NCBI GenBank assembly: GCA_964418255.1
Contig: CAYQKV010000002.1
Coordinates: 108,421-172,420 of the forward strand
Reading direction: 5' to 3'
DNA from: an uncultured Christensenella sp.
Lineage (GTDB): Bacteria; Bacillota; Clostridia; Christensenellales; DTU072
Length of the DNA stretch: 64,000 nucleotides
The position numbers were made by a program, and so were the translations under genes. Below are positions 12,978 through 13,714 of this stretch, piece by piece (position 1 is the first letter of the stretch; every line of letters begins with the position of its first letter). The notes under the pieces were generated by a model, which saw nothing but the letters and a program-made list of their open reading frames with translations, was not told the DNA's origin and made no database searches.

Positions 12978-13252
12978 TATTCATTGTCGCCTAACTATTG
13001 TAGATAATGATTATATAATAATTTTGTCGAGAAAGCAAGACAAATTAAAATTGATTGTTCGTCGCGCACCGTTCCAACGGAGATATAGCGGAGTAATTCT
13101 TCGTGTTTTTATCTTTCATATTTAGAAAGCCGCCTGTTAATGAAATGTCGCAAAAGCGACATAAAATATCTTTCGATGTGAAATACGGCAAAAGCCGTGT
13201 GAAATAAAATTCGCCTTTTGCTTGATACTTTTTTGGTATAAAGGGACGTAAA

Positions 13253-13392
13253 AAATGAAGTCGCTGTCGCTAATGAAGACGTTACGCTAATGAAAAATGA
13301 AGCGAAGCGCCACCATAATTAGCGCAATTTTTGCGCGACTTCATTAGGCGAAGCCGTCTTCATTCTTCATTCAACAAAAGTGGCGCTTCATT
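13253..13392. repeat. Cluster of convergent AATGAAG motifs (3 on the + strand, then 4 on the - strand)
   Basis: The + strand carries aatgaagtcgc, aatgaagacg and aatgaagcg..gcgccac. Their complements follow in the same order: gcgacttcatt, cgtcttcatt(cttcatt), gtggcgcttcatt. Confidence 0.5.
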
Positions 13393-13393
13393 T

Positions 13394-13427
13394 CAAACCC
13401 CCCTTTGAAAAAACAAAGGGGGGTTTG
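13394..13427 (-). other. GC-rich perfect hairpin closing the structured segment downstream of tRNA-Leu
   Basis: caaacccccctttg / caaaggggggtttg with a tttttt loop. No clear U-tail after the stem. Confidence 0.4.
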
Positions 13428-13428
13428 A

Positions 13429-13572
13429 TGGTGCCGATGGTGGGGGTCGCTCCGACATCCGAACTTTGTTCGGACTTCGCGGTTAACACCGCTACGCAGA
13501 CCACGCTGTGTCTATCACGCCGGGGCGGACGACAACTCATCGGATTGTCGTTTAATCCGCCCGTTCGACCCC
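13429..13572 (-). ncRNA. Candidate 144-nt structured RNA, or att-bounded remnant, ending in a copy of the tRNA-Leu 3' end
   Basis: Closing stem GGGGTCG/CGACCCC. Internal helices GGGCGGA/TCCGCCC, ACGACAA/TTGTCGT, GCGGT/ACCGC and TCCGAAC/GTTCGGA. The last 21 nt are identical to the tRNA-Leu 3' end including CCA. Class not recognised. Confidence 0.3.
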
Positions 13573-13584
13573 ATAAAATATATC

Positions 13585-13622
13585 AAGAAATAAAATAATC
13601 CGAGATTTTATCTCGGATTATT
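13585..13622 (-). terminator. Rho-independent terminator after tRNA-Leu
   Basis: Stem aataatccgaga/tctcggattatt, followed on the minus strand by ttttatttctt. Confidence 0.7.
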
Positions 13623-13627
13623 TTATT

Positions 13628-13714
13628 TGGTGCCGATGGTGGGGGTCGAACCCACACGATGTTGCCATCACGGGATTTTGAGTCCCGCGCGTCTGCCAGT
13701 TCCACCACATCGGC
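13628..13714 (-). tRNA. tRNA-Leu (anticodon CAA), type II with long variable arm, CCA encoded
   Basis: Manual cloverleaf: acceptor GCCGATG/CATCGGC, anticodon stem CGGGA/TCCCG with loop CTCAAAA, variable arm TGATGGCAACATCGT, T arm GTGGG-TTCGACC-CCCAC, and terminal ACCA. Confidence 0.9.

Follow-up and report, generated by a model that had tools for sequence, protein, structure and literature searches.

Positions 13429-13573 on the minus strand of the 64-kb window (the whole stretch of DNA that was analysed), downstream of a tRNA-Leu(CAA) gene, are probably, at an estimated 0.55, an intact copy of a family of guide-bearing, non-autonomous, mobile structured elements residing behind the 3' ends of tRNA and tmRNA genes. 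The unit is conserved, folded and encodes no protein, and both its ends are written in the sequence of the preceding tRNA. As no prior description of such elements was found in the literature searched, the family is apparently undescribed.

An exact search of the window detected TGGTGCCGATGGTGGGGGTCG exactly twice, at 13429-13449 and 13628-13648 (0 of 100 shuffles matched). Since the tRNA-Leu(CAA) gene occupies 13628-13714 (minus) according to both ARAGORN and Rfam, 13628-13648 corresponds to nt 56-76 of the tRNA including CCA, and the other copy sits 199 nt downstream on the tRNA strand, just as a sequence-only reading of this DNA had stated. The same reading had described a strongly folded segment of 144 nt, and 13429-13572 (minus) indeed folds at -61.3 kcal/mol (z = -2.9) and forms the helices listed there (GGGGTCG/CGACCCC, GGGCGGA/TCCGCCC, ACGACAA/TTGTCGT, GCGGT/ACCGC and TCCGAAC/GTTCGGA). 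It had overlooked that the 5' end of this segment is an antisense copy of the T-loop of the tRNA. The features of the locus are, in the direction of the tRNA:

13628-13714, minus: host tRNA-Leu(CAA) (ARAGORN; Rfam tRNA, 51.4 bits)
13628-13648, minus: repeat copy A1, the last 21 nt of tRNA-Leu(CAA), nt 56-76 including CCA
13588-13627, minus: terminator palindrome T, AAAUAAAAUAAUCCGAGAU-AAA-AUCUCGGAUUAUUUUAUUU, immediately after CCA (from sequence and fold)
13573-13587, minus: A/U-rich spacer of 15 nt
13563-13572, minus: guide segment S, GGGGUCGAAC, reverse complement of tRNA-Leu nt 53-62
13566-13572 with 13443-13449, minus: helix P1, the first 7 nt of S paired with a 3' strand that lies within A2
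13450-13562, minus: conserved core
13557-13562 with 13523-13528, minus: helix P2, capped by P3
13545-13550 with 13530-13535, minus: helix P3
13512-13522, minus: joiner CGGCGUGAUAG
13510-13512 with 13454-13456, minus: helix P4, enclosing three variable hairpins (13457-13509)
13450-13453, minus: joiner GGAG
13429-13449, minus: repeat copy A2, exact copy of tRNA-Leu nt 56-76
13429-13442, minus: distal tail CACCAUCGGCACCA within A2, unpaired when the unit is folded alone
13394-13428, minus: GC-rich hairpin after A2, AAACCCCCCUUUG / CAAAGGGGGGUUU, 13 bp, unrelated to T

The core joiners can also be given as GGCGUGAUAG and GGAGC, and the three-way junction at this locus consists of AAC of S with P2/P3, and of P4 with the joiners. 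The terminator that had been noted ahead of the segment was recovered as a perfect palindrome (T). Neither T nor the hairpin at 13394-13428 was flagged by a simple terminator scan of the minus strand; in the case of T this is explained by an A/U-rich stem that, from our reading of the sequence, fails the G-C rule of the scan. The hairpin after the tail had been predicted with 14 bp; it is present, with a length of 13 bp, and judged from its sequence it is most likely the original downstream sequence of the tRNA at this locus. In about half of the arrays the sequence past the last tail copy is unrelated to the terminator of the unit. The neighbouring genes are ordinary ones (glycerate kinase, alpha/beta hydrolase, DUF4364, dUTPase and DUF711), and the earlier remark that no integrase is nearby was confirmed for these neighbours of the tRNA-Leu(CAA) locus.

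Comparison of 13429-13572 with Rfam 15 at E values up to 10 gave no known RNA family that matches the segment as a whole; two chance-level matches (E 0.35 and 5.3) enter only its 3' third from the flanking hairpin, and none of the intron, retron and ribozyme models matched the segment. In BLAST against the genus, two other species were found to have the segment beside tRNA-Leu(CAA) too, and its 5' half recurred behind many other tRNAs, often in tandem. A covariance model (R1) was then built from 13 copies, in which the tRNA-Leu(CAA) copy scored 144 bits, the second highest value among all copies. R1 gave 112 matches in 31 of 81 genomes of the taxonomic family, with up to 10 matches per genome; in Christensenellales 49 of 301 genomes (16%) from 33 of 150 genera are carriers, including genomes of 0.8-1.2 Mb. 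Outside the order, 8 carriers were found among 401 sampled genomes of the phylum (2%), and among the relatives of one of these (G709) R1 was detected in 18 of 41, several of them single-contig genomes. The complete single-contig carriers are probably cultured isolates. The suggestion of a miniature tRNA-targeting element, made from the sequence of this one locus, was thus essentially right: the units form a multicopy family behind more than 25 kinds of tRNA gene and tmRNA, and two empty/occupied site pairs are described below. The host isoacceptors include Leu, Ser, Ala, Pro, Arg, Gly, Glu, Lys, Val, Asn, His and Thr, and at one tmRNA locus four units are lined up behind the gene. Each carrier genome has 1-10 copies; tandem arrays occur, and decay or truncation of copies is frequent. 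A metagenome scan for the empty-site or the occupied junction of the tRNA-Leu(CAA) locus gave no match, and two short contigs matched the family pattern.

Units measure about 100-170 bases, or 105-230 bp including the terminator. In the Christensenellales family searched, S starts 43-63 nt past the CCA of a tRNA on the same strand, and 10-69 nt past CCA in other groups. T belongs to the unit in most Christensenellales copies and is missing from copies within tRNA operons, where some units lie 10-24 nt past CCA; one of these operon-embedded units is located upstream of a tadA-like ORF, its translation judged by eye. When copies at different tRNAs are compared, the shared homology begins immediately after CCA. 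In the source genome, 6 of the 37 tRNA genes have their tail repeated within 250-500 nt, and the cores of these tail-copy units fall into three unrelated families with the same layout. For the two core families other than R1, an Rfam comparison at E values up to 0.1 gave matches to tRNA alone. A resemblance of the joiners, or of CUGACGAG in core family 3, to a hammerhead was considered and rejected, owing to an unfit core order and the lack of an Rfam match.

The order of parts is the same in all units of the family examined: an optional terminator of the unit's own and a short linker, then S, the core, and a copy of host nt 56-76. The consensus of S is GGGAYUYGAAC (10-11 nt), the reverse complement of host nt 53-63 (T-loop and 3' T-stem). 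As S is the reverse complement of GUUC (nt 53-56) plus GAAUCCC (nt 57-63), it spans exactly the junction between the core and the host tail. The core reads AAC, P2-P3, YGGCGUGAUAG, P4 and CGGAGC, with a variable P3 and with P4 being either a simple hairpin or a stem around up to three hairpins, depending on the copy. The tail copy runs from host nt 56 or 57 to nt 76; its first 7-8 nt pair with S in P1, which meets P2 and P4 at a three-way junction, and the border between conserved core and host-specific tail is exactly the base of P1.

Covariation supports this fold. In 104 distinct sequences, 93.5% of the cells were paired compared with 76.9% after shuffling and 36-48% with the partner slid, whereby the fitting of the alignment to the model makes these pairing figures lean towards structure; changes on both sides were found in 24 of the 27 pairs. 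G-U combinations outnumber A-C combinations 77 to 15, indicating that the folded strand is the tRNA-sense strand. Over the 104 distinct copies, S pairs with the tail copy at about 95% of the P1 positions, tracking the T-loop variant of the host. P1 columns 4, 5 and 8 covary (AU/GC; UA/CG/GC/AU; CG/UA), the P1 columns change with the T-loop variant of the host and with nothing else, and S follows seven or more such variants. Tail copy and host tail agree in most units, the mismatch rate being about 2% per site, and in eight copies P1 is kept with an unrelated distal tail. In the order-wide consensus about 20 unpaired junction nucleotides are invariant across the order.

S has a second possible partner. 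In all 47 of 47 first units it can pair, according to the folding, with the T-loop of its own tRNA across the terminator instead of forming P1, giving a long hairpin that is topped by the terminator and in which the 13-nt distal tail and the spacer lie opposite each other in a symmetric internal loop. The upstream and the downstream pairing of S are mutually exclusive; in a unit-length circle P1 and the S/T-loop pairing would be one and the same helix. For the full read-through RNA of the tRNA-Leu(CAA) locus, folding predicts the S/T-loop pairing as well as pairing of the distal tail with the 5' acceptor strand of the tRNA (z = -7.5). No conserved promoter hexamers were found in the spacer upstream of S.

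Two comparisons of congeneric genomes, both at other tRNAs, provided unambiguous pairs of an empty and an occupied site. In G604, tRNA-Arg(CCT) ends with ...CCACCA and passes directly into TTGAAAACTGAGGTACTATG..., and in G709 a 17-nt linker, an S that fits tRNA-Arg, the core and GAGTCCTCCCGGGGCCACCA come in between, after which the same flank follows. The insertion is exact and comes with a duplication of 20-21 nt of the host tail. In G631, tRNA-Ser(TGA) and tRNA-Arg(ACG) are 5 nt apart, and in G504 linker, S, core and tail copy are found between them; here 6 nt of the linker recur at the exit junction and CCGCCA is used again, a microhomology footprint. In both pairs the flank past the last copy is that of the empty site. 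These two pairs indicate that new copies enter after CCA and leave nt 56-76 of the recipient duplicated. In addition, cores with 95-98% identity were detected at different tRNAs, in two cases inside one genome, with the homology reaching from just past CCA to the tail copy and with both tails host-specific; some of these near-identical copies may also go back to gene conversion between older units. One further copy of the source genome (C10) carries a foreign tail, its relocation being due to recombination between flanking repeats. Among the arrays, many comprise 1.x units and terminate in a linker and a truncated S, which looks like copying from a tandem or circular donor.

For the mobile-element reading we would envisage a copy-in process similar to template switching. 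A new copy would enter at the 3' end of a tRNA gene, and linker, S and core would be copied from a donor, i.e. another locus, a tandem array or a circle. Copying would return to the recipient where the start of the new tail copy (nt 56-63) meets the T-loop sequence of the recipient, and a return at this place duplicates the recipient's tail. The match between S and the T-loop would decide which tRNAs are usable, and later spread would proceed by gene conversion and unequal crossing-over.

The search for a mobilising enzyme speaks against this reading, as none was found. Reverse transcriptase (PF00078, RVT_1) is absent from the source genome and from 64 of the 81 family genomes, including some with 6-10 units, and is likewise lacking in most of the carriers tested; for a structure at the RNA level, the step back to DNA would then be left without an explanation. 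The Y1 transposase (PF01797) is absent from the source genome and was found in 3 of 28 genomes of the genus, and a search of the 28 genomes for Y2 (PF04986) gave no match, which is uninformative because the control genomes were silent too. Of the large serine recombinase genes, 3 of 25 adjoin a unit and none is located in the source genome; they abut some units because separate islands have inserted into the same tails. At least one tyrosine recombinase was detected in every carrier tested, and this ubiquity makes tyrosine recombinases uninformative with respect to the mobiliser. BstBI-like cutting at the junction (TT^CGAA) was considered and rejected as not general, with many hosts lacking TTCGAA.

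Of RNA and single-stranded DNA, RNA is the likelier form of the folded strand. Points in favour of RNA are the G-U bias, the invariant unpaired junction and the terminator-less units in tRNA operons; points against it are the missing promoter of its own, the strong terminators before S in most Christensenellales copies and the absence of a reverse transcriptase. With these terminators between tRNA and S, expression of the unit is putative. The unit may also be a small RNA mimicking the acceptor 3' end of a tRNA, one of the readings first offered for the segment; the fold is strand-specific, some units reside in tRNA operons, and the tail is predicted to be single-stranded in the unit alone.

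A possible but unlikely explanation is that the units are RNAs serving the host in tRNA biogenesis, in cis or in trans, their transcription resulting from read-through or from inclusion in a tRNA operon. In a switch, S would pair either with the T-arm, thereby blocking tRNA folding, or with the spare copy (P1), and the junction would bind a ligand or protein; in a putative ribozyme, cutting and joining between C56 and G57 would give the cognate tRNA a fresh 3' end. Such a function would fit the terminator-less units 10-24 nt past CCA in tRNA operons, one of them ahead of the tadA-like ORF (by eye), the strong preference for G-U over A-C, the position of S exactly across the point where core meets host tail, its mutually exclusive pairings, and the read-through fold that joins the distal tail to the 5' acceptor strand at z = -7.5. 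The 20 or so invariant unpaired junction nucleotides, found across the order, would also suit a host-beneficial RNA. Units are moreover kept in genomes of only 0.8-1.2 Mb, and the succession of 5' guide, core and 3' exon resembles the internal guide and 3' exon of group I introns. A host function is, however, difficult to reconcile with the patchy spread over 16% of the genomes of the order and 2% in the remaining phylum, with 1-10 copies per genome, with tandem arrays and many copies that are decayed or truncated, with insertion polymorphism between congeners, and with two unrelated core families of the same layout in the same genome. The eight copies that keep P1 next to an unrelated distal tail also argue against it, and the core is far below the size of any splicing ribozyme and matches no known ribozyme model.

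Doubtful, and less likely still, is the idea that the unit is a putative self-sufficient, guide-programmed nucleic-acid device, whose core is catalytic or recruits only core host enzymes and acts between C56 and G57 of the tRNA or tmRNA matched by the guide. Its working form may be a unit-length circle, and the putative chemistry would swap or renew tRNA 3' ends, or copy the unit behind new tRNA genes.

That the two tails are attL and attR of an island or phage with a T-loop-class tyrosine integrase, either collapsed or moved in trans as att sites only, appears improbable. In its favour, the source genome has a real island of 11.3 kb at tRNA-Val(TAC); tRNA and tmRNA genes are the classical targets, the tRNA 3'-end direct repeat starts in the T-loop as a classical identity block, every carrier tested has a tyrosine recombinase, and a unit of 105-230 bp with terminator resembles a minimal attP such as that of lambda in size. 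Conservative recombination between non-identical sites would leave the tail of the donor in the tRNA, whereas both tails are host-specific in the fresh insertions and in the copies of 95-98% identity at different tRNAs. Furthermore, no integrase is found near this locus or most copies, S changes together with the host, and the covariation in the core is that of base pairs and not of protein-binding boxes. Two carriers (G254 and G220) possess units and only one full-length tyrosine recombinase each, which is Xer-like. Truncated units as the left ends of big islands were considered and rejected, as no distal tail copy follows within 15-19 kb. The family was also not found in phage records by blastn, and pattern scans of IMG/VR gave only chance matches in GC-rich coding DNA, with no R1 match and no tRNA. 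The scar of a decayed or excised element, which had been offered first for this locus, was hence not borne out, considering the missing integrase, the covariation at the single-strand level and the host-specific tails of fresh insertions.

Passive debris, in which tRNA 3' flanks are shuffled by replication slippage and gene conversion at hairpins and the core is a stable passenger, is hardly credible: copies of terminator modules and hairpin repeats are scattered over tRNA flanks too, one copy was moved by recombination between flanking repeats and one insertion shows a microhomology footprint, but compensatory changes in 24 of 27 pairs, invariant junction nucleotides and a host-matched S across the order and beyond would not be expected without selection on the fold.

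The mobile structured element can be placed next to several known systems. T-loop-class tRNA/tmRNA integrative elements and CIMEs likewise target tRNA and tmRNA 3' ends, are bounded by a tRNA 3'-end direct repeat beginning in the T-loop (an exact 21 nt here, and present in most copies with an identified host tRNA), accrete in tandem and may bring their own terminator. In contrast to them, the units lack integrase and cargo, their fresh insertions duplicate the tail of the recipient instead of importing that of the donor, and they hold an internal, host-tracking antisense copy of the T-loop within a body whose covariation is that of a folded single strand. Integron attC cassettes and the CTXphi attP(+) hairpin (IMEX) share with the units a structure that is kept over sequence, a strand-specific fold, a stem re-creating a copy of the target core, tandem arrays and the absence of an enzyme from the unit. 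The units appear to deviate from the attC R-box consensus RYYYAAC/GTTRRRY, however: S does end in GAAC, but the tail-copy side reads GGAGC followed by GAA and not GTTRRRY. Their target is the tRNA T-loop and not attI or dif, about 20 unpaired nucleotides of their junction are invariant, and a tail duplication is unexpected from the conservative reactions of these systems.

A scaffold combined with a short segment complementary to the own target or flank is also known from the IS110 bridge RNA and the IS200/605 TnpB omega RNA, and the group I intron internal guide and engineered trans-splicing ribozymes have the same succession of 5' guide, core and target-identical 3' sequence. Unlike with these guide RNAs and ribozymes, the unit neither contains nor adjoins a recombinase or nuclease gene; compared with group I introns the core is much smaller (60-110 nt), shows no similarity to intron models, and its catalysis is putative. 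MITEs, REP/REPIN, BOX and Correia elements are protein-less, multicopy, hairpin-rich and intergenic as well, often lie near terminators and include decayed and tandem copies. Different from these small repeats, the units have no terminal inverted repeats linked to a transposase family, are strictly sited behind tRNA/tmRNA genes with host-matched ends, and are bounded by a 20-21-nt duplication between T-loop and CCA. S and the start of the tail copy do form an 8-bp inverted repeat, but its sequence follows the host, and no autonomous partner was found. RAYTs belong to the Y1 transposase family, and this family is absent from most carriers tested, which separates the units from REP/REPIN. The unit junction falls after GTTC of the T-loop; IS91-type elements insert next to GTTC/CTTG and would need a Y2 transposase, for which the search was uninformative. 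From retroelements (SINE-like elements, retrons and group II introns) the units differ in that the source genome has no reverse transcriptase.

The 3' ends of tRNA genes are the best-known landing pads of islands and phages, and short tail repeats at these ends are routinely taken for integrase scars. For a large share of such repeats this assignment would not hold: the repeats are something else at 6 of 37 tRNA genes here, and the same is true for many Christensenellales and scattered other genomes of the phylum, several of which are complete single-contig assemblies, so that the annotation of tRNA flanks is affected. If the guide truly selects the target, the units would amount to a programmable insertion system of very small size; should the core prove catalytic or regulatory, they would be a new class of RNA tied to tRNA maturation or repair. 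The device described above, if real, would be a natural counterpart of engineered trans-splicing ribozymes. The complete single-contig carriers make the units amenable to testing. Many copies are located at contig ends, which would account for assembly breaks in gut MAGs.

Besides the R1-type units (R1 being the covariance model of the element family behind tRNA and tmRNA genes), the genome of the window holds two further, unrelated core families with the same layout, in which a segment antisense to the 3' part of the tRNA precedes a folded body, with a copy of the tail in sense orientation after it. Core family 2 was found behind Thr-GGT, Thr-CGT and Pro-CGG, and core family 3 as three tandem 168-nt units behind Arg-ACG; neither matched an Rfam family. 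In core family 3, the 5' end is predicted to pair with the tail in an acceptor-like helix of 11 bp that leaves GCCA as an overhang. Together, the two families occupy these stretches:

C10:28473-29079
C15:23472-24059
C3:174236-174548
C1:296183-296502

A tmRNA gene can also act as host, as at locus L170 (G254:C21:41800-43000), where four R1-family units lie behind it, each closed by a duplicate of the 3' end of the tmRNA.

Conventional integration at tRNA genes was observed as well, with a classical island in the genome of the window that is delimited by a 39-nt sequence repeated from the 3' half of the tRNA and contains no structured unit:

C3:141804-153242, 11.3-kb island at tRNA-Val(TAC)
C3:142054-142461, tyrosine recombinase match in this island

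Elsewhere, genes for large serine recombinases of about 500 aa lie beside units at L071 (G004:C18), L050 (G014:C237), L087 and L111, and terminate within a degenerate tRNA-tail look-alike adjoining the unit. These are islands that entered the tRNA tail on the upstream side of the unit.

Two features were detected just downstream of the tRNA-Leu(CAA) locus:

13138-13210, forward strand, Rfam Gut-1 RNA match below threshold (42.5 bits at E = 1.3e-6, the gathering score being 50), with three hairpins and UGAAAU flanks
13223-13392, AATGAAG / CTTCATT motif array, immediately after the distal hairpin of the element

CTTCACT/AGTGAAG hairpin repeats related to this array follow four other tRNAs of the same genome (C10 Val-CAC, C12 Ser-GGA, C3 Ser-TGA and C18 Ala-CGC), each time preceded by a AAAATCGGCAAA...TTTGCCGATTTT-type terminator. 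Another terminator module, AATAATACGAAC...GTTCGTATTATT, recurs after the last tail copy of several different tRNAs in different genomes (L033, L076, L098, L106, L065, L117 and, in the genome of the window, C3:153243-153300), so the terminators behind tRNAs are dispersed modules in their own right.

Very often, units and arrays are located where a contig of a metagenome-assembled genome ends (many loci, e.g. L013, L031, L040, L076, L088 and L119). Short-read assemblies are probably broken by the element family. Single-contig carriers were L263 (G769; 5,279,134 bp), L264 (G771; 4,321,753 bp) and L256 (G770; 3,624,449 bp).
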